A DNA stretch of 51,788 nucleotides from Bacteroidota bacterium. Its GTDB lineage: Bacteria; Bacteroidota; Bacteroidia; Bacteroidales; Tenuifilaceae. The notes under the pieces were generated by a model. The model had not been told where the DNA came from and searched no databases. It saw only the letters and a list, made by a program, of their open reading frames with translations. Position 1 is the first letter of the stretch. Each line of letters opens with the position of its first letter. The position numbers were made by a program, and so were the translations under genes. Below are positions 31,948-50,815 of the stretch, one piece after another. Location: assembly GCA_029558675.1 (NCBI GenBank), contig JAKQEF010000039.1:1-51788 (forward strand), in the 5' to 3' direction.

Positions 31948-31974
31948 TATTAACTCCTAGGATTATACAGAAAA

Positions 31975-32003
31975 ACCGTTACCACAAGTAGCGGTTTTTT
32001 TTA
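31975..32003 (+). terminator. Rho-independent terminator after rocD
   Basis: An 8-bp stem (ACCGTTAC/GTAGCGGT, with one G-U pair) has the loop CACAA and is followed by T8. An A-run precedes it, so it could act in both directions. Confidence 0.7.
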
Positions 32004-32141: not shown

Positions 32142-35100
32142 TTATTTCAATGCCTCCCTAATAATTCTTACCTCTTCCACCTCTTCAAGGGTGTCCATTG
32201 CCTGTTTTACAGGATGTTCGGCATGGCTTAACCGCTCAAACTCGCTTTGTATAACTGCCAGTTTCTCTTCTTCACTCATATCATCAGTTATAGGTTTTAA
32301 ATCTCCCAAATGCTTTAATATCTCTTTGCCGGCTGATTTGATTTCTTCGGCAAGAAAAAGTTCATAAACGATTACATCTAAAACCGATTCAAAAAACTTT
32401 GACTCAATAGTGTTTTTCTCTTTAGCTTTATTCCATTCAATCAAATAATCTACAATAAAAGAAGTGATTTTTTGACTATTCTTATTTGAATTTGGCACAA
32501 ACAATTTTCGTACGTTTAATGGTTTCACCTGAGCGAAAGTGCGACCACCTTCTTGAGTGAATTTGGTGTATAAAAAATCTGTAATGGTTGAATTTAAAAT
32601 TGATAATAAATACTTGTAGCTAAAATCTGTTTTTTGGGATTTCTTAAATACAAGTATGCTGTCAATAACATAAAACCCATTAGAGTCATTTGTAGCTCTA
32701 ATTCTGTCTGATGTCTGCCGCATTATTATTTTTTCTTCTTCAAATAGTAGCGGATACCTTTGTCTATTAAGAGCATACCAAGGCATTATTCCGCTTTTAG
32801 CTTCACTGCGTTTTTCTAGCTTTTCTTTGAATTCAAATAAGTAATCTCGAATGAATGGAAAATTATCAATGTTCGTTGATCTATCAGTGTAAACAACCAA
32901 ATGCTCTGTGTTTGAAATAGAATATTTATCTATTTCACCACCTACTAAAACAGGTTTTAGAATTTCCTTTTCAAAATTGTTTTGCACCGCATAATCCTTG
33001 GGGATTCTAAATATTTTATCGCCACCAGTAGATATACCGCTTGCCATCTCTTCAGCAATATCATCTATGGTAACTGAAACTTGTCGCAGCTTTTCAATAA
33101 TTTTGAATTCTTCTTCTGAGATACCAAATACAGATGCTGGGGTTTTCAAAGTAGATGAAACAGATTCTAACTTGAAAACTTCTCTGAAATCAAGATTTTT
33201 CTTGTTAGCATTTCTTAGGTCAGCATAATGATATCTATTAAGACCTGAATTGTTTTTTGACGTTAAGAAAATACAGGATGGAACTGTGGCTGTATTGAAT
33301 ACGCCATCACCTAAATTAATTCCAATATAGAATTGATTTTTAGCCAAAAGGAATTTTCTTGTTTTTTCATATTCAGACTGAAAAAACAAATTATTAGGAA
33401 CTATGTAGGTGATTATACCATCATTATGTAACAGCCTAAAGCCTTTTGAGATGAAATAATTAAATGTGTCAGGCGTTCTCATATGAACATCTGAAAACTC
33501 ATTCTTAAAGAATTTTTTTTCTTCTGCGGTTAAGTCTGCTCCATAAGGCGGATTCCCAATTACCACATCAAAGCCTATAAAATCTCCCTTTTCATCCAAC
33601 AAATTAGGAAATTCAAACCTCCATTCTAAAGCATTTTCATAAATCTTACCATCTAAGGTTTCATCTCTTTCTTCTTCAAGCTGTTTTAGCTTTTTATTAG
33701 CGTCATCAATTTGCTTTTTTGTTCCCGCTTGTTTTCCAAACACATCCACAAATTGAAGGTTTTGAACATCTCCTCTTGCTTTAGAAATCTTCTCTTTTTC
33801 TTTGTTTTGTAGGGTTGTACTAAAAGCATTTTTAATTTCCTTTATAAACTCTCTAAAGATTTGTTTCTTTTCATGAGAAGATTCAATCAAAAAATCATTG
33901 GTTATTTTTTTATAAAATTCAAGGTTGACTTCATTATTACCTACTAAATCTTTAATGGTTTTATTGTTGTAACTTTTATCTCGAATTTTCTTGTTGAATT
34001 CTATAAATACATCATTAATAGGAATATCAAGAGAATATCTGCTTATTAACGAATTGCCACAAACAATCTTATAATCTAAGTTGGGCAGGGTTTCAATGGG
34101 GTCAAGGTCGTCTTCGTCCACTACCAAGCTCAACCACAATCGCAAACGGGCAATGTCAATGGCAGAGCTGTCAATATCCACCCCGTAAATGCTTTCCTGT
34201 ATAATGTGGCGTTTCAGGCGGTAGATGTAGCGGCTGTCGCTCACTTCGGCTACGCTCAGTGTGCGTCCGTTTTCTTCAAAACCAAAGCCTTTTAATTTTT
34301 TGGTCAGGTAGTTGTAGCTTAAATGGGGTTTTAGAACCAGCATGGCGTTTACCAATTCGTGCAGTAGCCCCACAGGGAAAGCTCCCGAACCAATGGCAGG
34401 GTCGCAAATTTTAATGTCGCTTAGCTGCTTATCAATAAGGTCGGCATTTTTACGGATGCTTTCGGGCAGTTGGTATTGGTAGGTTTTGGTTTCGCCTTTG
34501 GCAGCTACCCGCTCATCATTTTCTAAGGCAAAATGTCCTTCGCGGATAAAGGTTTCGATGTCATTTTTCTTAACTTTTTCTTCCAAGGCATTGTCCAAAT
34601 AATGAATCAAGCTTTCCTGACACATATAGTGCACAATTTCGCGTGGGGTATAGAATGCGCCCTTGTTTTTACGCTCGGTGATATCGAGCATATTTTCAAA
34701 CACTTTTCCCAGCATTTCGGGGTCAACGGCCACCTCTTTATCCAGCGGTTCGTCCTCCTTAATGGTAAAGTTGTAGCGGTCGAACACGTCCAGAATGCCC
34801 GTACCTATATCACCTGCTTTGTTTTTTTCTTCGTTGCGGAACAGGTTTTCTGGAATGGTAATACCGGCTTCCTGCCAGTTGTAATCGGCTTCAAATAAAC
34901 CACCATTCAGGAAAGGAATGCGGCAATCAAAACGTTGGTAGTAAGAGTTTACATTGTCCCGCTCTTTGGCAAGGGCTTCATAAAATAGGTATTGTAGCTT
35001 GTCTTTAAAGAAATTGACCTTTTCTTTTTGGGCTTGGTCAAACAGTTCCTGCACAAATCGTTTTTTACCTGTTCCCCAACGGGCATTTTGAGCCACACCC

Positions 35101-35861
35101 AGCCAACCCTTTTTCTGCAAGAAGTACAGGAATACAATTTGCCCCAGGAGTTTTTTGGTAAACCGCGAGTTGTCTATTCCGGCTTTTTCAAATGCAGTCT
35201 TTACCCTGTGGTCGTTCTCAAAATGCTCATAAAGTTTGATGTAAAGGTCTTTGTATTGTATAAAAAACTCATCTGTAACTTTATCAATACTAAACGCTGC
35301 TTCTATCTGCTCAATGGTGGGGTTGCCGGAAATGTTTTGCAGCAAAGGCAACAGCTGATTTTTTGCAGTATGAGCTTTTTCGTATTCGCCCACCAAAAAC
35401 GAGTAGCGCTTGGCAGGGGTAAATTCTTTCCTAATTTTAACCTTACCCTTCTCCTCGTCCAACTCCGAACGGTATTCCAATTTGATAAACGAAAAACGCC
35501 AATCCGCACCACCATCCTCCTTGCTGTAGAAAGCCACCAAAGCGTAGTCTTTGTCGAATTTACTGAGATGCTTGATAACAAAATTTCGGAGTGCCGTTCT
35601 GGCCCGCTCCAACTTTGTAACGCTTTTTACTTCTGCTATCAGCACATCAAGTGCTTCGCCATTGGGGTCGGTATATTTGCCAATACGTTTGTAGGAGTTG
35701 ATATGCTCTTTGAAGTCGTCCCAAATCAAATTGCCGTTATACCTATTATCCCTGCTTTCCATATCGTTCAGCAGGTTTTTGGCAAAAATGGTGAACTGCT
35801 CCTCGCTAAAAGCGCTGTTGAACGTAGTTTCTATAAGGTCTTGTGCAGTTTTCTTGTCCAT
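32142..35861 (-). CDS. Large Eco57I/PglX/DrmMI-like gamma-class N6-adenine DNA methyltransferase with a C-terminal TaqI_C-like target-recognition region
   Basis: 1239 aa. Motif I is ICDPAIGSGAFP (about 34371-34406). Motif IV is VVIGNPPYG (about 33541-33566) and is preceded by the Eco57I-family ALEWRFEFP element. About 470 aa follow motif IV and could serve as a target-recognition domain. The start codon overlaps the upstream stop (TAATG). Confidence 0.85.
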   Translation of the reverse strand: MDKKTAQDLIETTFNSAFSEEQFTIFAKNLLNDMESRDNRYNGNLIWDDFKEHINSYKRIGKYTDPNGEALDVLIAEVKSVTKLERARTALRNFVIKHLSKFDKDYALVAFYSKEDGGADWRFSFIKLEYRSELDEEKGKVKIRKEFTPAKRYSFLVGEYEKAHTAKNQLLPLLQNISGNPTIEQIEAAFSIDKVTDEFFIQYKDLYIKLYEHFENDHRVKTAFEKAGIDNSRFTKKLLGQIVFLYFLQKKGWLGVAQNARWGTGKKRFVQELFDQAQKEKVNFFKDKLQYLFYEALAKERDNVNSYYQRFDCRIPFLNGGLFEADYNWQEAGITIPENLFRNEEKNKAGDIGTGILDVFDRYNFTIKEDEPLDKEVAVDPEMLGKVFENMLDITERKNKGAFYTPREIVHYMCQESLIHYLDNALEEKVKKNDIETFIREGHFALENDERVAAKGETKTYQYQLPESIRKNADLIDKQLSDIKICDPAIGSGAFPVGLLHELVNAMLVLKPHLSYNYLTKKLKGFGFEENGRTLSVAEVSDSRYIYRLKRHIIQESIYGVDIDSSAIDIARLRLWLSLVVDEDDLDPIETLPNLDYKIVCGNSLISRYSLDIPINDVFIEFNKKIRDKSYNNKTIKDLVGNNEVNLEFYKKITNDFLIESSHEKKQIFREFIKEIKNAFSTTLQNKEKEKISKARGDVQNLQFVDVFGKQAGTKKQIDDANKKLKQLEEERDETLDGKIYENALEWRFEFPNLLDEKGDFIGFDVVIGNPPYGADLTAEEKKFFKNEFSDVHMRTPDTFNYFISKGFRLLHNDGIITYIVPNNLFFQSEYEKTRKFLLAKNQFYIGINLGDGVFNTATVPSCIFLTSKNNSGLNRYHYADLRNANKKNLDFREVFKLESVSSTLKTPASVFGISEEEFKIIEKLRQVSVTIDDIAEEMASGISTGGDKIFRIPKDYAVQNNFEKEILKPVLVGGEIDKYSISNTEHLVVYTDRSTNIDNFPFIRDYLFEFKEKLEKRSEAKSGIMPWYALNRQRYPLLFEEEKIIMRQTSDRIRATNDSNGFYVIDSILVFKKSQKTDFSYKYLLSILNSTITDFLYTKFTQEGGRTFAQVKPLNVRKLFVPNSNKNSQKITSFIVDYLIEWNKAKEKNTIESKFFESVLDVIVYELFLAEEIKSAGKEILKHLGDLKPITDDMSEEEKLAVIQSEFERLSHAEHPVKQAMDTLEEVEEVRIIREALK

Positions 35862-36946
35862 TATTCCAATAATTTTTTCAAAGTTGACGAATCGGGCAAC
35901 GCTTGCTTGTATTGTTCGGGCAATTCCTTACTTGTTTTATAAGTAGCCACCCCCATGGCTTTGTTAAAATCTCTAAAGCTATACTCTACTATTTTTTTAT
36001 TTTTCTCTTTGCAGAGTATAATCCCAATGGAAGGATTTTCGTGGGGTTGTTTAACAATCTCGTCCAATGCAGAGAGGTAGAAGTTCATTTTACCCAAATA
36101 CTCGGGTTTAAATTTTCCTGTTTTCAGCTCAAAAGCAACAAGGCTCTGCAATTTTCTGTTGAAAAATAGCAAATCGACAAAATATTCTTGTTCTTCAATA
36201 ATCAACCGGTACTGATTGCCTATAAAAGCGAAATCGCCACCAAGTGAGAGAATAAATTTTTTTATGTTTCTTACTATTTCGCTCTCCAATAGCCGTTCAT
36301 CCACAAAATCGGGATCTTCAACATTAATAAAATCTAGCAGATATTCATCCTTAAACGACTGAATTGCTTGCTCTCTGATATGGGGTTGTAAAATAGTTTG
36401 AATGAAGTTATTGGGTAGAGTTCCCCGTTGGGAATATAAATTGGCCGCTATTTGTTTTTCGAGATGACGATAATTCCAATACTCTTCGGCTACTTTTGAC
36501 AGGTAAAAAAAGGCTTCATTAAAGTCATTACATTTAGATGCAATGCTATAATGATGGGTAAAACTAACAGAGAAAAATATGTCAGCAAAGTTACCGGGCA
36601 ATTGGTTCGGCAATGCCGAACTGATTGCAAAACTGTGATCTTCTATTTGGTTCGGCGGTAACGAACCAATTACTATTTGCTTACTCCAAAAATCGGCAAA
36701 AACCCGCATTTTTTTTAAGTTGCCGGCAGAAAAGCCCCGAAGGCCGGGTAATTCATTTTGCAACTCAATGGAAATTTGTTCCAGCACCTTGCTGCCCCAC
36801 GCTTCGTTAGTAGCCGTATCGCTAATTTTTTTACCTATGCTAAAATAGAGGGCTATCAATTCGCGGTTTACCAATCGAGCGGCCTGATAGCGGCTTTTTA
36901 AAATCGCATTTTTCAGTTCGGCAACTATGTGCTTTTCAATGGTCAT
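35861..36946 (-). CDS. DUF1016/YhcG-family PD-(D/E)XK nuclease-fold protein
   Basis: 361 aa. The hallmark C-terminal core is FVDLLFFNRKLQSLVAFELKTGKF (D ... ELK), followed by GKMNFYLSALD. It sits between the helicase and methylase genes, separated from the helicase stop by 2 nt and overlapping the methylase start by 1 nt. Confidence 0.8.
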   Translation of the reverse strand: MTIEKHIVAELKNAILKSRYQAARLVNRELIALYFSIGKKISDTATNEAWGSKVLEQISIELQNELPGLRGFSAGNLKKMRVFADFWSKQIVIGSLPPNQIEDHSFAISSALPNQLPGNFADIFFSVSFTHHYSIASKCNDFNEAFFYLSKVAEEYWNYRHLEKQIAANLYSQRGTLPNNFIQTILQPHIREQAIQSFKDEYLLDFINVEDPDFVDERLLESEIVRNIKKFILSLGGDFAFIGNQYRLIIEEQEYFVDLLFFNRKLQSLVAFELKTGKFKPEYLGKMNFYLSALDEIVKQPHENPSIGIILCKEKNKKIVEYSFRDFNKAMGVATYKTSKELPEQYKQALPDSSTLKKLLE

Positions 36947-36948
36947 TC

Positions 36949-39900
36949 TTATCCAATTAAATATCCTGACAGAATTACTTCACGTTTTTGGAATTTCTTG
37001 GCGTTTTGAGCTCCCTCAATGGCTACAAATCGGATGTACTTTTCCAGAATATGTAACATTTGCAGGGGGTCAGCGGTTTTCTCCAACTCGGTTTTGATTA
37101 ATTGGGCCGTTTTTTTCGCAATGGTGCCCTGCGCCAGCATATCGCGCACACCGTTCAAAAAATCATCATTGGTATCGGTAAACCCTTTAAAATTCCTAAA
37201 AGATTTGTCTTTCAATCTGTTTTCAATGTATTTGGCGTTGGAACGTCCGCCACCTCCTTTGGCCGGCTCATCACCAACGGTAGTGTCTAGTTCAAAGCGG
37301 GCCTTATTGGTTTGTAGCAAATGGTAATAGTCGTTTGGAATAGCGGCACGCCTGGTTTCAGGGCTACATTCCAATTCATTCACCGCATCAAAAAAGGTAA
37401 TTTCGTTGGATTTTCCATTTTGGTTTATATAAAATTTCTTGAGTTTCCCAATTCTGAAAAATGTAACCAAAGCATTATCCTCAAGGTTTTCCTTTTTGAA
37501 ACCCGAACGTGCTTTTTTGGGCAAGTGCTTTATTTTATCAAATAGTTCGGGCCGTTTATCCCTGATACTCCTCATTAACTCCAAATACTTAAGCTCGGAG
37601 TCGCCTTCATCTTCACCTGTATAGGATGCTTTGCTATTCAAGGTGTTGAATAGTTCCTGACTTCCAAACTCCTCGCCGTCGCTCAGGTATTTGGCATCTT
37701 CACCCAAAATATCGTGGAACATTTGAATTTTATTGGTAATGTTTACCTCCAAGCCAAGGTGTTTGTCAGATTGGGTAGTGGGGAAGAAATTAAAAATATG
37801 CACCTTGGGGAAAATGGTGCCCAAACGGTTAACACGCCCTACCCTTTGCAATACTCGAGTGGGATTCCAAGGCAAATCATAGTTAACAATCACATTGGAA
37901 CGGTGCAAATTGATGCCTTCCGCCAAGACATCTGTTGATATGAGAATTCTTAAGTCGTCAGTTTGCTCTTTATTTTTTGGGTCAAAGTTCTCAGTAATAA
38001 TATTTCTCGATACAGTATGGTTTGAAGTAAGCTTTTTATCCGTGTGTCTTCCGCCTGCACTTGAATAGAACATTACTTTTCCTTTAAACACCTCCTGCAA
38101 CGCTTCGTATATATAGTCGCCCGTTTCCTTCGATTCGGTGAAGATGATTAACTTGTTCTTTTTAAGAGCAGTCGTTGTTCTTAACTCCTGAATAAATGTT
38201 TCTAATTTCGGATCGGTGTTTATACAACTCCATAGTGCTTTTATCTCTTTCAAAATGGAAAGGTCAAATTCTAACTTGGTAATAAACTCTTTCTTGAAAT
38301 CTTTTGAATCGTATTTATGGGCCTTTTCTTCTTCTAAAAGATCTTCAAGACGTTCAAGATTGTCATTTTCAATTAAGTCGTACACATCAACCTTTTTGCT
38401 GATGTAAACCGTACCATTTTGATACATTGCAATGAACTTCTCATAGGAAATAATGAAGCGGTCAATACTTTGGCGAAATGCATGGAAACTACTTTCTAAC
38501 CTTTTCACCAAGATACCTTTCATAAATCCACCCACGTTGCGTTGCTGTTGCTTTTCAAATTCACTTAAGGCCTTGTTTCCAATATAATACAACAGGGGGG
38601 TATATCGTGCATAGGTAAATTCAGCTAACTTTTTTATTGTTTTAATAAATGTATCCTCCAGTTCTCCTTCGTACTCATATACAATCTTTTGAGGGTTGTC
38701 AATATCAGGGAAAGTCAACTCCTGCTTTTGCATGTCCTCTTTGAAGTAGGTCATTATATCCTTACGAGTTCTGCGGACCATTACATAGCGAAGAATTCTG
38801 TTACGTATATCATCAGAAATCTCTTTAATTAACTCTTTGTATTTTGGATCGGTTTTTTCGAGTTTTTTGAGTTTAGTTCTAAATCTTGCAAAATATTTTT
38901 CAAGGTTGGGAATACCCGGTATGGTTGAATTTTTAGGAGCTTGAAATAGTTTTAGTTGAGCAAAGATGTCGTCAATAGTATTGTTTAATGGCGTTGCTGT
39001 TACCAAAATCATTTTTTTTCCACGGCAGATGTCAAGCAGATTGGCGTAAGATTGCGTGTTTTCATTTCGGAAACGGTGCGCTTCATCCACAACTATGTAA
39101 TCGTAGCGTTCTAATCCCTTTTTTATTATGTGTTCCAATTTACCCAATGATTCAACCTCAAAACTTCTTATGCCAAAATCGAATAGAGAGTCTTTCCAAT
39201 AATCCTTCAGAACAGGCGGGCAGACAACCAGTGTCCTTCCGTGTAGCTGTTGCAGCAGTAAAGCGGTAATAAAGGTTTTACCCAGTCCAACCACATCTGC
39301 CAAGAAAACCCCGTTGTAGGTTTCCAATATCTTTTTTGCCTGAATAGCAGCTTGGTTTTGATATTTTAATTTCATAAAACCATCGGGCAGAAAGGGTTCA
39401 AACTCATCTGCCAGGTTAATATCTTCTTCCAGATACTCATATATGAGCTTTAGATATAATTCGTAGGGCAAAATCTGATCGTTCAGCCATGTTCTAATCT
39501 GTATTGTATCCACAAAATCTTCCGAAATGTCAACTGCATCCTTCCAAAGATTATTGAATTGTTTTTCAGCGAATTGAACGTCCCTCTTTTGTCTTAGTTC
39601 AACATTAAATTCCCTGTTGGCTACAAAACCCGATTCGGAAAAATTACTTGAACCTGTAATGACGAAGCCATAATCGCGATCATCGGGCTTAAATCTACCG
39701 ATGTAAACTTTTGCGTGAATGTTTCGAGTAGGGTAAGCTCTAATCTCTAATTTCTTTCCGTTACCATTTCTTGCTTTATCTGCTTCGGGATTAGGGCAAT
39801 CGGTTTGAAGAAATTCGATAAACTTGCGAATACCTACTTCAATATTGCTGTCGTTTTCATTGCTGTTCTCAACTTCTTCTTTAAGGTTTTGTTGGTACAG

Positions 39901-40191
39901 CTTTTTAGTTCGTTGATGCGATTCAAAATCAATGGTTGAACTTTTCTGATGGTATTGCATTATTTTATATGATTCCCTGTCCACGCTAAGACCAACAAGA
40001 ATTCTAACTTTTTCAAGCGGTTCTATGGCATTATAAAGCTGATAAAAACCACTTATCCTGAAATAGCCAACCAACACGTCAAATAGCTGAGTGTCTTTAA
40101 GTGTTGCCTTAAATCTACTCAGTAAAGTTTGCCCTTCTTCATTGGTGAAGAAAGTCAAGTCTGTTTGATCAGTATTATTGTCAGTGCTCAT
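36949..40191 (-). CDS. Fusion of an N-terminal PLD-family (single HKD) nuclease domain to an SNF2/SF2 helicase-like ATPase
   Basis: 1080 aa. The HKD region is IHAKVYIG...ITGSSNFS (residues about 158-185, 39640-39720). The helicase motifs are I ADVVGLGKT (39274-39288), II VVDEAH (39076-39087), III LVTATP, V STDVLAEGINLH and VI QRVGRVNRLG. Confidence 0.85.
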   Translation of the reverse strand: MSTDNNTDQTDLTFFTNEEGQTLLSRFKATLKDTQLFDVLVGYFRISGFYQLYNAIEPLEKVRILVGLSVDRESYKIMQYHQKSSTIDFESHQRTKKLYQQNLKEEVENSNENDSNIEVGIRKFIEFLQTDCPNPEADKARNGNGKKLEIRAYPTRNIHAKVYIGRFKPDDRDYGFVITGSSNFSESGFVANREFNVELRQKRDVQFAEKQFNNLWKDAVDISEDFVDTIQIRTWLNDQILPYELYLKLIYEYLEEDINLADEFEPFLPDGFMKLKYQNQAAIQAKKILETYNGVFLADVVGLGKTFITALLLQQLHGRTLVVCPPVLKDYWKDSLFDFGIRSFEVESLGKLEHIIKKGLERYDYIVVDEAHRFRNENTQSYANLLDICRGKKMILVTATPLNNTIDDIFAQLKLFQAPKNSTIPGIPNLEKYFARFRTKLKKLEKTDPKYKELIKEISDDIRNRILRYVMVRRTRKDIMTYFKEDMQKQELTFPDIDNPQKIVYEYEGELEDTFIKTIKKLAEFTYARYTPLLYYIGNKALSEFEKQQQRNVGGFMKGILVKRLESSFHAFRQSIDRFIISYEKFIAMYQNGTVYISKKVDVYDLIENDNLERLEDLLEEEKAHKYDSKDFKKEFITKLEFDLSILKEIKALWSCINTDPKLETFIQELRTTTALKKNKLIIFTESKETGDYIYEALQEVFKGKVMFYSSAGGRHTDKKLTSNHTVSRNIITENFDPKNKEQTDDLRILISTDVLAEGINLHRSNVIVNYDLPWNPTRVLQRVGRVNRLGTIFPKVHIFNFFPTTQSDKHLGLEVNITNKIQMFHDILGEDAKYLSDGEEFGSQELFNTLNSKASYTGEDEGDSELKYLELMRSIRDKRPELFDKIKHLPKKARSGFKKENLEDNALVTFFRIGKLKKFYINQNGKSNEITFFDAVNELECSPETRRAAIPNDYYHLLQTNKARFELDTTVGDEPAKGGGGRSNAKYIENRLKDKSFRNFKGFTDTNDDFLNGVRDMLAQGTIAKKTAQLIKTELEKTADPLQMLHILEKYIRFVAIEGAQNAKKFQKREVILSGYLIG

Positions 40192-40192
40192 A

Positions 40193-40468
40193 TTACTTAC
40201 GGTATAAAATGGTGTTCAGCGTCTCTTCCGGTCCGTTTTTTAAAAACTTTAATTCTCCTATGTCCAACAGGATGAATGATTTGATATATTCAATTTCCAT
40301 TTCCTTTTCTTCAACTTCTAGTTTCTTAGCCGGTGTCGGCAACATTTCTTTTGTTGCCACAAGTTCACTTCTTTCAATCTTGCTTAGAATAGAAGTGTCA
40401 ATATCAAGTTCTGCTGCAACCTTTCAAAATGGTAATCCCAGCTGTTCACGCCTGTTTCGTAAATACAT
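40193..40468 (-). pseudogene. XRE-family helix-turn-helix gene interrupted by an in-frame TGA at codon 15 (C-protein-like position)
   Basis: A manual minus-strand translation gives MYLRNRREQLGLPF*KVAAELDIDTSILSKIERSELVATKEML...LYRK*. The TGA lies at 40424-40426. The frame is kept across all 92 codons, and the sequence flanking the stop aligns to the canonical XRE HTH (GLsqeeLAekLgvsrstiSkiErg). The TAA at 40193-40195 is 1 nt from the helicase ATG. The gene is absent from the ORF track because both fragments are short. Confidence 0.55.
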
Positions 40469-48760: not shown

Positions 48761-50815
48761 CTACTGAGCTTTGCTAAGCGCTGCAATCGCTTTTTCCGAA
48801 GCCTTCAGAATGGGGTCAATGGATAGCGGCTCGCCCACTCCACCTTTCATCCAGAGCTGAGGAATAACAGTGCCCTGCTCGAATATGCGCTGAATCTCGT
48901 TGGCAAAGTGCTTTCCTGCCAAGTGCTGCTCCAGCTGAAAACTTATGAGATGCCCCAGGGGATAGGCTGACAGGTATAAAGGATTGTCAATCATATGGCT
49001 GTAAATGGCCAGGATGGTCTCATCTTCCCCGCCAAAAACATCCTTGTAATAGCGATTCCATACATCCCTGGCAATACGCATGGTGGCTTGCTTCACCTCC
49101 TCGCTCGTTGCATTGGGGTTTTCGTAGAGCCATCTCCAAAGGTTAATATCCACCAGAGAGACACCCATAATCTCGTAGCACGACCACAGGTCGTCCAATG
49201 CCATCAGGTGGTCCTTCTCCGGATTATCATCCTTTATGTTGAGCACATCCAAATCGCGCTTCTGGAAGATGAATGCCAGAGCCTCGGTAAATGCTGTGTT
49301 TGGCACGCCATTCATCATGTAGTAGTCCACATCGTGCATGGTGATGGTTTGCTCCACGGTATGCCCAAACTCGTGCATGGCTATATTGAAACCCTTGTAG
49401 TTCATACCACTCCCCTCGATACGCGTGCGGAGCAGGGCAACATCGGAACGCATGGCGCCTCCCCAGGCATGGCCTGCTCCCCTGCTACCCTCAACCCTGA
49501 TTTTCGATGCCAAGAAGTTGGCCTTCTCCTTACTCCAACCCAAGGATGTGAGAATGTTAGGAATTTCGTTTTCAAATGCCTGGGCACTGGTAAAGCGCTT
49601 ACCAACAGCAGCATCCAGTTTTTCTGCAGGAATGGTACTACGCGATTTAAACCCATCGTACCAAATATCGAATGGCTCCAACGGTCTCCCCAACTTGCTG
49701 CTGATGAGGTTCCCCAAATCGCGCACCTGCTTAGAAGAAACCAAATCGATGAAAAGCTGCTCAACATCCTCAACGGAAAGTTCGTAGCTCCCTTCAAACG
49801 TACGCTGTATGTAGTTTGGCATGGTAGAATAAAATGGATCCATATCCTTAAGAGCCCCAAACAGATTTACCACCTGCTGGTAGCGGGTGTTGGGCTCGGG
49901 TTTGAAGTTCACCTTTTCGCCATCCTTCATCAGCTCATTGGTCACCGGATTCCATGTGTAATCAGGGTTATTAATCACCTCTTGCGGAATGGTCTGGTCG
50001 ATAATTCGCTTCATCACAGCATATACCATTCTCTGATTGCGCAGTCCGTTTTCCGTGTCGGCATACTGAGATTTCAGCTCATCGCGCAGCCCCCAGTGGG
50101 TAATCAGCTTCATATCCTTCGGGAATAGAGCATTCCCATTCTCATCACGCAGATTCCCCATGTAGATATTGTATTCGCTGATGTAGGTATCGGCCTCGGT
50201 GCTGAGTTTGGAATAATTTTGGATTAGCGAAGCCGGAACTCTGGAGGTAAACATGTTACCCATACGGGCATAGGCCCATTGAAGCCTTGTCCAGCCCTCA
50301 CCCAGCTGTTCTTTCTCGGCAAGTGAATAGTATGGGAAATTGAGCGCAGTAACAAACGCTATCTTGCTGGTAAACAGGTCTTCGGTCAGGTGTGCCCCGG
50401 CACTAAAACTGCCAAACATCATATCGATGGGTGTAATTTCGCCCATATCCAAATGCAAAGGGCGCATCAAATCCTTGGTTATCCTTAAAAAGTAGCCATT
50501 AAGAATTTCGTAACCCGCCGACAGCTTCTCAAAAAGAGTGTGAAGTTGTTGGGCATCGGCAACGAATTCTTCCTGGCAAAACGATTCGAAATCTTCAACG
50601 CTGCCATCGGAGGTGCGCCATAGGTTGGCCACCTGATTCACACCCCTTTCAATGCGGAACTGCAAATCCGAACCATGCTTTTCAATCAGTTTGTCAATAG
50701 TTTTTGCCACCACCTCCTTCGGAATGGGGCTTCCTTCGGGTCCCTTTTCGGCTTGCTTACACTGAACCATAATCATAAGAATTGGAATGGTTAATAACAC
50801 TGCTAACTTTTTCAT
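48761..50815 (-). CDS. Putative zinc metallopeptidase lipoprotein (HExxH), family not assigned
   Basis: 684 aa. It has a signal peptide with a Cys (MIMVQC) and a single HEFGH motif (NIAMHEFGHTVEQ). I could not place it in M2, M3 or another family by eye. Confidence 0.55.
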   Translation of the reverse strand: MKKLAVLLTIPILMIMVQCKQAEKGPEGSPIPKEVVAKTIDKLIEKHGSDLQFRIERGVNQVANLWRTSDGSVEDFESFCQEEFVADAQQLHTLFEKLSAGYEILNGYFLRITKDLMRPLHLDMGEITPIDMMFGSFSAGAHLTEDLFTSKIAFVTALNFPYYSLAEKEQLGEGWTRLQWAYARMGNMFTSRVPASLIQNYSKLSTEADTYISEYNIYMGNLRDENGNALFPKDMKLITHWGLRDELKSQYADTENGLRNQRMVYAVMKRIIDQTIPQEVINNPDYTWNPVTNELMKDGEKVNFKPEPNTRYQQVVNLFGALKDMDPFYSTMPNYIQRTFEGSYELSVEDVEQLFIDLVSSKQVRDLGNLISSKLGRPLEPFDIWYDGFKSRSTIPAEKLDAAVGKRFTSAQAFENEIPNILTSLGWSKEKANFLASKIRVEGSRGAGHAWGGAMRSDVALLRTRIEGSGMNYKGFNIAMHEFGHTVEQTITMHDVDYYMMNGVPNTAFTEALAFIFQKRDLDVLNIKDDNPEKDHLMALDDLWSCYEIMGVSLVDINLWRWLYENPNATSEEVKQATMRIARDVWNRYYKDVFGGEDETILAIYSHMIDNPLYLSAYPLGHLISFQLEQHLAGKHFANEIQRIFEQGTVIPQLWMKGGVGEPLSIDPILKASEKAIAALSKAQ

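Follow-up and report, generated by a model that had tools for sequence, protein, structure and literature searches.

A PLD-Snf2 fusion protein and its Type IIG-like methyltransferase partner in a Bacteroidota genome: a candidate ATP-dependent restriction-modification module from a widespread, already catalogued family

The fusion of a phospholipase D (PLD) nuclease domain to an Snf2-type motor, the pairing of this protein with a methyltransferase and its reading as a restriction partner are already present in databases and in print (PMC6098607, PMC9881135, PMC12839542). The fusion is catalogued as cd09178 in the CDD (cited in PMC9881135), as C3a139 'HKD+Snf2' (PMC6546367) and as 'PLD_Helicase' in PADLOC. 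In Lactococcus lactis, orf33 and orf34 of pLd8 code for a PLD-Snf2 protein and a Type IIG-like methyltransferase; it was proposed that restriction is provided by the PLD domain (PMC6098607). The same pairing was noted in Prevotella intermedia 17F, where the m6A motif GGYGAB was attributed to a Type IIG gene of the locus, pin17FIII; expression of another gene by itself led to no modification, and no role of the upstream helicase was shown (PMC5608340). Phase-variable Cj0031-like loci with this pairing were described by Milman et al. (2023), one of them with a DUF1016 gene beside the methyltransferase (PMC9881135). Type-2 systems of the BR group (related to bacteriophage exclusion, BREX; formerly 'Hma') possess a Swi2/Snf2 helicase with an HKD endonuclease fused to its N-terminus and are restriction-modification (R-M)-like with an N6-methyltransferase (PMC12839542). 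SauUSI, an ATP-dependent restriction endonuclease, forms a stable constitutive dimer via its nuclease domains and can cut single-site DNA, too; its ATPase is switched on by target recognition and drives translocation, the DNA being shredded between sites (PMC7913695). Here, we describe a PLD-Snf2 gene and its neighbouring methyltransferase gene from a Bacteroidota bacterium (Tenuifilaceae), located on a stretch of 51,788 nt (contig JAKQEF010000039.1 of assembly GCA_029558675.1, positions 1 to 51,788; hereafter the window). The pairs of L. lactis, P. intermedia and the Cj0031-like loci have the same two-gene arrangement and domain content; they are likened here by their descriptions, which are annotations and hypotheses.

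Three open reading frames (ORFs) of the same direction occupy 32142–40191 on the minus strand of the window and code for proteins of 1080, 361 and 1239 amino acids, i.e., the PLD-Snf2 protein, a DUF1016-type nuclease and the methyltransferase (Table 1). The DUF1016 ORF begins 2 nt past the PLD-Snf2 stop codon, and it shares its final base with the start of the methyltransferase ORF, a spacing which suggests translational coupling. The PLD-Snf2 protein is read here as the subunit providing motor and nuclease (R-like) in a compact ATP-dependent defence module of the R-M type, with the downstream Type IIG-like methyltransferase as its obligate partner, and a probability of about 0.6 is assigned to this reading, which was derived from sequence comparison.

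Gene linkage and the pattern of conservation carry this reading. A set of 80 related loci was compiled from one-genome-per-species contigs, with helicases 54–87 % identical to that of the window and at least eight phyla represented (Bacteroidota, Firmicutes, Cyanobacteria, Gamma- and Deltaproteobacteria, Chloroflexi, Nitrospirae, Acidobacteria). Seventy of these loci include the whole 3' end of the helicase gene and no less than 300 bp downstream of it, and in 69 of them a methyltransferase homologue is located directly downstream of the PLD-Snf2 gene on the same strand; the sole exception is a contig ending within an inserted DUF1016 gene. The two genes are usually separated by 2–10 nt or overlap. 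Plasmid-borne matches to the PLD-Snf2 protein are all below 33 % identity; the pairing is kept at 25–31 % identity on Parabacteroides and Rhodococcus plasmids, while on a Thermus plasmid the methyltransferase gene lies upstream instead, one gene away. According to column conservation computed across 49 helicase-methyltransferase pairs, the helicase is evenly conserved along its length. Residues 1–600 and the last ~80 residues (1160–1239) of the methyltransferase are conserved as well, and the part in between (residues 600–1150), which includes the C-terminal portion of the catalytic part and the recognition domain, is hypervariable (0.13–0.31, with one 50-residue NPPY block at 0.43). A constant helicase next to a methyltransferase with a hypervariable half is the pattern expected if specificity resides in the methyltransferase and the helicase acts as a generic effector; the downstream methyltransferase is, thus, the likely source of sequence specificity. 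The constant ends around the hypervariable region would fit a swapping of specificity by recombination. No inverted partial methyltransferase copies indicative of phase variation were detected in the window, where ~195 bp lie between the methyltransferase gene and the next gene.

An earlier note, made by a model from the sequence of the window, had described a single-HKD PLD domain at the N-terminus of an SNF2-type motor. This was borne out: the Pfam model PLDc_2 matches residues 146–216 above threshold (36.4 bits, cut-off 27), the catalytic set is complete and the fold was confirmed. Profile searches thus place the domain within the PLD superfamily, and not outside of it as the note's own counter-case had it; the RE_NgoFVII N-terminal PLD model of Pfam stayed narrowly under its cut-off (22.7 versus 23.8 bits). 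All sequence strings quoted in the note are found in the translation of ORF 36949–40191, LFDVLVGYFRISGF corresponding to residues 36–49 (40045–40086) and the HKD stretch IHAKVYIGRFKPDDRDYGFVITGSSNFS to residues 158–185 (39637–39720). Only one HxK...GSxN element is present, as had been claimed; its upper bound at 39720 was given correctly, and its lower bound at 39637 was missed by 3 nt (39640).

The catalytic residues H159, K161, S181, N183 and E194 are invariant in all 50 relatives encoded by the related loci. Among 62 representatives of clusters formed at 50 % identity (33–65 % identical to the protein of the window), K161, G180, S181, N183 and E194 are likewise invariant and H159 is retained in at least 90 %. 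With a conservation of 0.87, the 50-residue block around the catalytic core ranks among the highest of the protein and equals the motor motifs. The canonical Asp of the HKD signature is replaced, as already noticed, position K+5 being R166 and R or K in all aligned relatives; in the HxK(x)4D signature, this Asp has a structural and not a catalytic role. Acidic residues (D170–D173) do follow the HxK motif, but they are not conserved in more distant relatives and are therefore unlikely to stand in for the Asp.

The structure of residues 1–270 was modelled with AlphaFold2 (AF2) from an alignment of the 62 cluster representatives, yielding a predicted local distance difference test score (pLDDT) of 88 and a predicted template modelling score (pTM) of 0.83; this model replaced an unusable one (pLDDT 35) based on 25 close homologues of 75–85 % identity. 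A Foldseek search of the model against the PDB returned 62 matches at E 0.001 or better, headed by SauUSI (7CLG, E 3e-10). Further matches among the top 50 are FAM83-type PLD-like domains, NucT, the NgoAVII R-protein (rank 10), Nuc, PLD3/4, Zucchini and BfiI. This fold search was needed to place the domain, since its sequence profile retrieved only Zucchini from the PDB at a non-significant E of 0.58, with the GSxN...NRE stretch lined up between the two proteins. Based on the fold matches to SauUSI, NucT, Nuc, Zucchini and BfiI, the N-terminal domain is a Nuc-like PLD nuclease. A single-HKD domain of this kind requires a second copy to form one active site, as is the case for Nuc, BfiI and Zucchini.

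The motor motifs listed in the earlier note, GLGKT (residues 302–306), DEAH (369–372), TATP (398–401) and QRVGRVNRLG (782–791), were all located, the last three in their Snf2-specific forms DEAHRxxN, TxTPxxN and QxxGRxxRxG. Pfam models SNF2-rel_dom (53.7 bits, cut-off 24.9) and Helicase_C (60.3 bits, cut-off 23.5) match, and the best PDB sequence matches of the motor are ISWI, DDM1, Chd1, SSO1653 and RapA. Residues of Walker A, DEAH and motif VI are invariant in the 50 relatives (A371 in 49). The stretch of ~330 amino acids between motifs III and IV/V, formerly taken for a long insertion, is one only in part: SNF2-rel_dom extends to residue 507, and residues ~465–660 align with the equivalent region of DrmD, HmaA, BrxHI/II and DpdE in PADLOC. 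Since the profiles of these proteins cover the equivalent region, it is a feature common to the Snf2 proteins of defence systems. The earlier distinction from Mokosh, which pairs a PLD nuclease with an SF1/Upf1-like RNA helicase, also stands, the motor of the window being of the Snf2/SF2 type; no Mokosh model is among the best 25 of 37 PADLOC matches. The C-terminal region, already described as unassigned, comprises ~250 rather than ~200 amino acids, and residues 821–1080 matched nothing in Pfam (all members), in PADLOC or, with a 17-sequence profile, in the PDB. Its moderate conservation (0.54–0.76) is unlike that of a variable specificity domain.

SauUSI, the best structural match of the PLD domain, has an identical layout, its chain starting with a single-HKD PLD domain and continuing with an SF2 ATPase and then a C-terminal domain, and it shares the dimer of PLD domains as well as ATPase-driven translocation and cleavage away from the site (PMC7913695) with the mechanism proposed below. 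Together with the unassigned C-terminal domain, this likeness could mean that the PLD-Snf2 protein acts alone as a Type IV enzyme like SauUSI and reads modified phage DNA by its C-terminal domain, the methyltransferase gene being a mere neighbour. We regard this as highly improbable, since the methyltransferase gene is linked at translational-coupling distances in 69 of 70 loci, no SRA, DUF3427 or other reader domain was found with Pfam, PADLOC or PDB profiles, and a modification-dependent nuclease in one operon with an active adenine methyltransferase would risk self-attack. SauUSI recognises modified cytosine by a recognition domain of its own and lacks a methyltransferase partner, whereas for the PLD-Snf2 module specificity is expected from the separate methyltransferase and the expected target is unmethylated DNA. 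The motor of SauUSI is absent among the best 60 of 140 PDB matches, all of which are Snf2 remodellers, RapA or DEAD-box helicases. Thus, the PLD domain and SF2 ATPase of SauUSI-type Type IV enzymes are present at the locus; an own reader domain was not detected and a cognate methyltransferase is encoded.

The partner protein combines a gamma-class N6-adenine methyltransferase and a recognition domain in one polypeptide, as is characteristic of Type IIG proteins. It carries the Pfam domains Eco57I, N6_Mtase and TaqI_C, and motif I (DPAIGSGAF, 34377–34403) and GNPPYG (33540–33557) are both intact. Its best PADLOC match is REase_MTase_IIG (E 2e-194), a REBASE-derived model of Type IIG restriction endonuclease-methyltransferases, and this match includes the first 330 residues. 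The methyltransferase might, then, be a self-sufficient Type IIG enzyme cutting by an N-terminal PD-(D/E)xK domain of its own, with the PLD-Snf2 protein as an auxiliary whose role might be to shred DNA once a first cut has been made, to remove bound proteins or to back up an inhibited enzyme. Solitary homologues of the Cj0031-like family, as tabulated by Milman et al. (PMC9881135), would be in line with this explanation, and so would the possible motif D65-x11-E77-x-K79 in the window copy. Among 52 helicase-linked partners, however, only D65 is fully conserved; K79 is present in 48, and position 77 is E in 31, Q in 15, K in 3 and another residue in 3 (N, Y and H being among the replacements), so that 21 of 52 partners (~40 %) have lost the putative catalytic Glu. 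The N-terminal domain matched no nuclease fold in Pfam or by PDB profile, and a restriction domain was not detected within the orthologous L. lactis protein by its authors (PMC6098607). Furthermore, the PLD site is more strictly conserved than any part of the methyltransferase N-terminus. The frequent loss of the Glu in the partner, as opposed to a PLD site that is never lost, suggests that cleavage was handed over to the PLD-Snf2 protein, and hints at a nuclease domain of the methyltransferase that may be in decay or repurposed for docking. That the methyltransferase is a self-sufficient Type IIG enzyme and the helicase its accessory is, on balance, unlikely; because the window copy keeps the Glu, this explanation is retained as the main rival to a PLD-Snf2 protein that serves as the nuclease subunit.

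Profile matches additionally relate the locus to exclusion-type defence. The best PADLOC match of the PLD-Snf2 protein is C3a139 'HKD+Snf2' (E 1.6e-50), followed by DrmD and 'PLD_Helicase'; the helicase also matches profiles of BrxHI/II, HmaA and DpdE, and the methyltransferase those of DrmMI and PglX. Pairs of an Snf2 protein and a PglX-like methyltransferase recur in BREX type 3, ARMADA and BR systems (PMC12839542, PMC12458937). The Snf2 motor and a PglX/DrmMI-like methyltransferase could, accordingly, block the replication of unmethylated DNA without classical cleavage, in the manner of BREX or DISARM (defence island system associated with restriction-modification), the PLD domain being secondary. 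Several observations leave this explanation with a small probability: the scores are far under the family cut-offs (DrmD, 152 versus 610 bits; PglX, 111 versus 500 bits), genes for PglZ, BrxC, DrmA/B and DUF499 proteins are absent from the window and not recurrent in the related loci, and the invariant catalytic residues of the PLD domain argue for an essential nuclease chemistry.

The individual systems of this group were also compared one by one. Class 1 DISARM likewise has an Snf2 motor, an Eco57I-like N6-methyltransferase and a PLD nuclease, to which weak DrmD, DrmMI and DrmC profile matches correspond; its PLD protein (DrmC) is encoded by a separate gene, whereas the domain is fused to the Snf2 protein here. 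Neither DrmA (YprA-like helicase) nor DrmB (DUF1998) is encoded in the flanks or recurrent in the 80 loci, and the DrmD equivalog NF038317 scores 151.9 bits at a cut-off of 610. Likewise, membership in BREX is contradicted by the PglX score and by the absence of PglZ and BrxC from the window and from the recurrent genes of the related loci. With 158.9 versus 1100 bits, the protein is related to, but not a member of, NCBIfam NF042964 ('phospholipase D-like domain-containing anti-phage protein'). BR systems also have an HKD domain at the N-terminus of a Swi2/Snf2 helicase beside an N6-methyltransferase, and the motor of the window matches the HmaA profile; they are, however, defined by a DUF499 AAA+ ATPase, in Type 2 additionally by DUF3780 (PMC12839542). 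Both are absent from the operon and its flanks and unseen among the recurrent neighbours tested, the recurrent third gene of the related loci being of the SMC_N/AAA_21/AAA_23/AAA_15 rather than the DUF499 type.

Two further groups of ATP-dependent R-M systems share the logic of the proposed module. CglI and NgoAVII (ATP-dependent Type II) also combine a methyltransferase with a PLD-family nuclease and an SF2 ATPase, and the NgoAVII R-protein is among the structural matches of the PLD domain. According to Zaremba, Toliusis and colleagues, their PLD nuclease reportedly has a DNA-recognition domain of its own, and the ATPase is said to be separate and not of the Snf2 type. Type III and Type ISP enzymes unite a methyltransferase/recognition unit with an SF2 ATPase-nuclease and communicate along DNA in an ATP-dependent manner before cutting; they differ by PD-(D/E)xK or Mrr-type nucleases and non-Snf2 motors. 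In addition, the Type III Mod subunit is a beta-class methyltransferase and Type ISP enzymes are single polypeptides. A Type III R-M system was rejected for the locus, its nuclease being of the PLD and its methyltransferase of the Eco57I type, with motif I before NPPY.

In the mechanism favoured for the PLD-Snf2/methyltransferase module, the methyltransferase/recognition protein would read a short specific site via its exchangeable recognition domain and methylate host adenines, as its homology suggests. At unmethylated sites, it would recruit or license the PLD-Snf2 protein, to which the strict gene linkage and the conservation of the non-specificity parts point. From its family membership and intact motifs, the Snf2 motor is predicted to hydrolyse ATP and to translocate on double-stranded DNA. 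Two PLD half-sites would form one metal-independent HKD active site and cut away from the recognition site, in agreement with the fold, the invariant residues and what is known of the family; most likely, they would be held in a permanent homodimer as in SauUSI. The genes for the helix-turn-helix (HTH) protein, the DUF1016 nuclease and an ABC-type ATPase would be accessory. The earlier note had proposed cleavage by two converging or dimerising motors, reminiscent of the collision-dependent cutting of Type III or Type ISP enzymes. A permanent PLD dimer with two motors appears at least as likely as such collision-induced dimerisation, because the closest solved analogue, SauUSI, is a stable dimer of its nuclease domains. 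The earlier interpretation was reasonable but not new, and its emphasis on collision was probably off.

The fusion singled out in the note is not rare; it represents a very large and already catalogued family. Of 8000 candidates scored, at least 7700 are homologues of the full-length protein, usually annotated as 'helicase-related protein' or 'HKD family nuclease'. The best 120 are 78–87 % identical and stem from Bacteroidota, Firmicutes and Acidobacteria; such identity across phyla is a signature of horizontal spread. The PLD domain alone retrieved ~1600 clusters at 50 % identity (E 0.001 or better), the full-length members of which comprise ~930–1300, mostly 1030–1130 amino acids; among the 150 cluster matches listed, the PLD match is placed N-terminally with a single exception. 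On the basis of these sequences, the PLD-Snf2 fusion defines a large family of its own. A search of phage genomes revealed no PLD-Snf2 homologue, and the motor part only in three records.

The accessory genes vary between the related loci. Directly upstream of the helicase gene, 24 of 68 loci encode a controller-like HTH homologue of 92–102 amino acids, resembling many R-M operons, and 44 do not. The HTH protein of locus L001, an intact ORF of 96 amino acids, matches HTH_31 and HTH_3 (Pfam) and, weakly, 'Control_protein' (PADLOC); compared to it, the gene of the window (40193–40468) contains an in-frame TGA at 40424–40426. The intact DUF1016 gene of the window (YhcG_C, E 1.8e-55, and DUF1016_N, E 1.5e-28, in Pfam; PDC-S02 in PADLOC) has counterparts between helicase and methyltransferase only in L004 (13249–14331) and L055 (13222–14340). 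Being found at this operon position in 3 of ~70 loci, it looks like an occasional passenger rather than a core component, and DUF1016 is a passenger also in Type I operons (PMC9881135).

An SMC/ABC-type ATPase of 500–620 amino acids is encoded after the methyltransferase in 35 of 46 assessable loci (76 %), e.g., in L005 (16729–18231), L018 (16734–18593) and L001 (18382–19917), and may be the third core component of an unnamed system; the operon of the window has no such gene. In 13 of the 35 loci, no more than 50 bp separate the ATPase gene from the methyltransferase gene or the two overlap, seven times by a 4-nt stop overlap. The remaining ATPase genes are located past inserts of 0.3–4.8 kb which hold GmrSD, McrBC or DUF262-HNH genes. 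Pfam domains of the ATPase are SMC_N, AAA_21, AAA_23 and AAA_15, and weak PADLOC matches are mad3, LmuB, AriA and PtuA. The gap between methyltransferase and ATPase genes was observed to be an insertion hotspot for Type IV genes (L001, 16572–18425; L011, 12417–15636; L037, 16820–18217), its contents being GmrSD, McrB/McrC-like genes and DUF262-HNH. In L001, genes for a NotI-like restriction endonuclease and a D12 methyltransferase are located just downstream. With GmrSD, McrBC and NotI as neighbours, the related loci lie in defence islands.

The in-frame TGA in the HTH gene, the missing ATPase of 35 of 46 relatives and the foreign DUF1016 gene inserted in the operon could also indicate that the window copy is a decaying or silenced remnant without a role in defence, whatever the family does otherwise. 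This is rather improbable given that both large ORFs (1080 and 1239 amino acids) are full length with all catalytic motifs intact, and that 11 of 46 relatives also do without the ATPase and 44 of 68 without the HTH gene, neither of which is, hence, universal. The window therefore holds, by its gene content, the minimal two-gene form of the module, with the regulator gene broken and the DUF1016 gene within the operon.

A number of points weigh against the PLD-Snf2 protein as the nuclease subunit of an R-M-type module. The PLD gene of DISARM, a related Snf2/methyltransferase/PLD system, was reportedly dispensable in the work of Ofir et al. from 2018, and a biochemical study of a PLD-Snf2/methyltransferase pair was not found in the open-licence literature. 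With a broken HTH gene and without the ATPase of 76 % of its relatives, the window copy may be regulated differently or weakened. Its methyltransferase retains D65...E77-x-K79 and belongs to a family labelled Type IIG (restriction endonuclease and methyltransferase) in REBASE-derived PADLOC models, and might cut on its own.

The block is a low-GC island (0.33–0.43 versus 0.44–0.49 around) amid housekeeping genes. It is flanked by genes for an aminotransferase, a TPR histidine kinase, a DUF4384 protein and a thioredoxin-domain protein (Pfam), and farther out by pgm, an S1 protein gene, guaA, pyrG, yidC and a gene for a TonB-dependent receptor with a CarboxypepD_reg domain, a gene content indicative of a chromosome of the Bacteroidota. 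For an ORF of 684 amino acids (48761–50815, minus strand), Pfam yielded nothing at E 1e-5 or better. A scan of 31.5–41.7 kb for repeats, tRNA genes and integrase genes at the island boundaries revealed short repeats at chance level only and no tRNA gene. Promoter and terminator scans stayed at background level, except for a hairpin at 31969–32001 with a 14-bp stem and T-runs on both strands, located between the aminotransferase gene and the methyltransferase gene, which converge; the hairpin is likely a bidirectional terminator and marks the distal end of the operon.

Table 1. Coordinates of genes, domains and motifs of the PLD-Snf2 locus in the window
Feature	Coordinates	Strand	Properties and basis
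PLD-Snf2 gene	36949..40191 (stop codon included)	-	1080 aa, ATG start, ORF intact
Single-HKD PLD (Nuc-like) domain	39487..40134	-	Residues ~20-235, helical insert ~70-145; AF2 and Foldseek
Catalytic core H159-x-K161...G180-S181-S182-N183...E194	39610..39720	-	Conservation
Snf2-family SF2 motor	37702..39384	-	Residues ~270-830; Pfam, PDB sequence matches
C-terminal ~250-aa region, family-specific	36952..37701	-	No profile match
DUF1016/YhcG PD-(D/E)xK nuclease gene	35861..36946	-	361 aa; Pfam, PADLOC
Eco57I/Type IIG-like gamma-class N6-adenine methyltransferase gene with TaqI_C-type recognition domain	32142..35861	-	1239 aa; Pfam, PADLOC
Possible PD-(D/E)xK-type motif D65-x11-E77-x-K79 in methyltransferase N-terminus	35625..35669	-	Read from sequence
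Disrupted XRE-type HTH (controller-like) gene	40193..40468	-	Translation compared with intact L001 homologue

The gene of the window is one more copy of a known, widespread family, and it is the family, more than this copy, that is of interest. Tentatively, and with some doubt on our side, the family may be taken for a distinct, unnamed class of ATP-dependent R-M systems. Its R subunit would be an Snf2 translocase with a Nuc-like half-site, its swappable specificity and modification subunit a Type IIG-like methyltransferase with a decaying ancestral nuclease, and its usual third partner an ABC/SMC-type ATPase, with the operon as a hotspot into which Type IV enzymes and DUF1016 are inserted. 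If such a class exists, it would provide the first restriction enzyme driven by an Snf2 motor. If the mechanism proposed above holds, an ATP-dependent restriction system would be built from parts which do not occur together in any characterised enzyme, i.e., a translocase of the chromatin-remodeller Snf2 type, a metal-independent PLD nuclease and a Type IIG-like methyltransferase. The module would then form a natural bridge from Type IIG enzymes to the DISARM, BREX and BR systems, the mechanisms of which are still debated, and would offer a two-protein model for the biochemistry of Snf2-driven defence. Many entries annotated as 'helicase-related protein' could receive a name. What remains of interest is Snf2-driven restriction as such, the decaying Type IIG nuclease motif in the partner and the common ABC-type ATPase as third gene.

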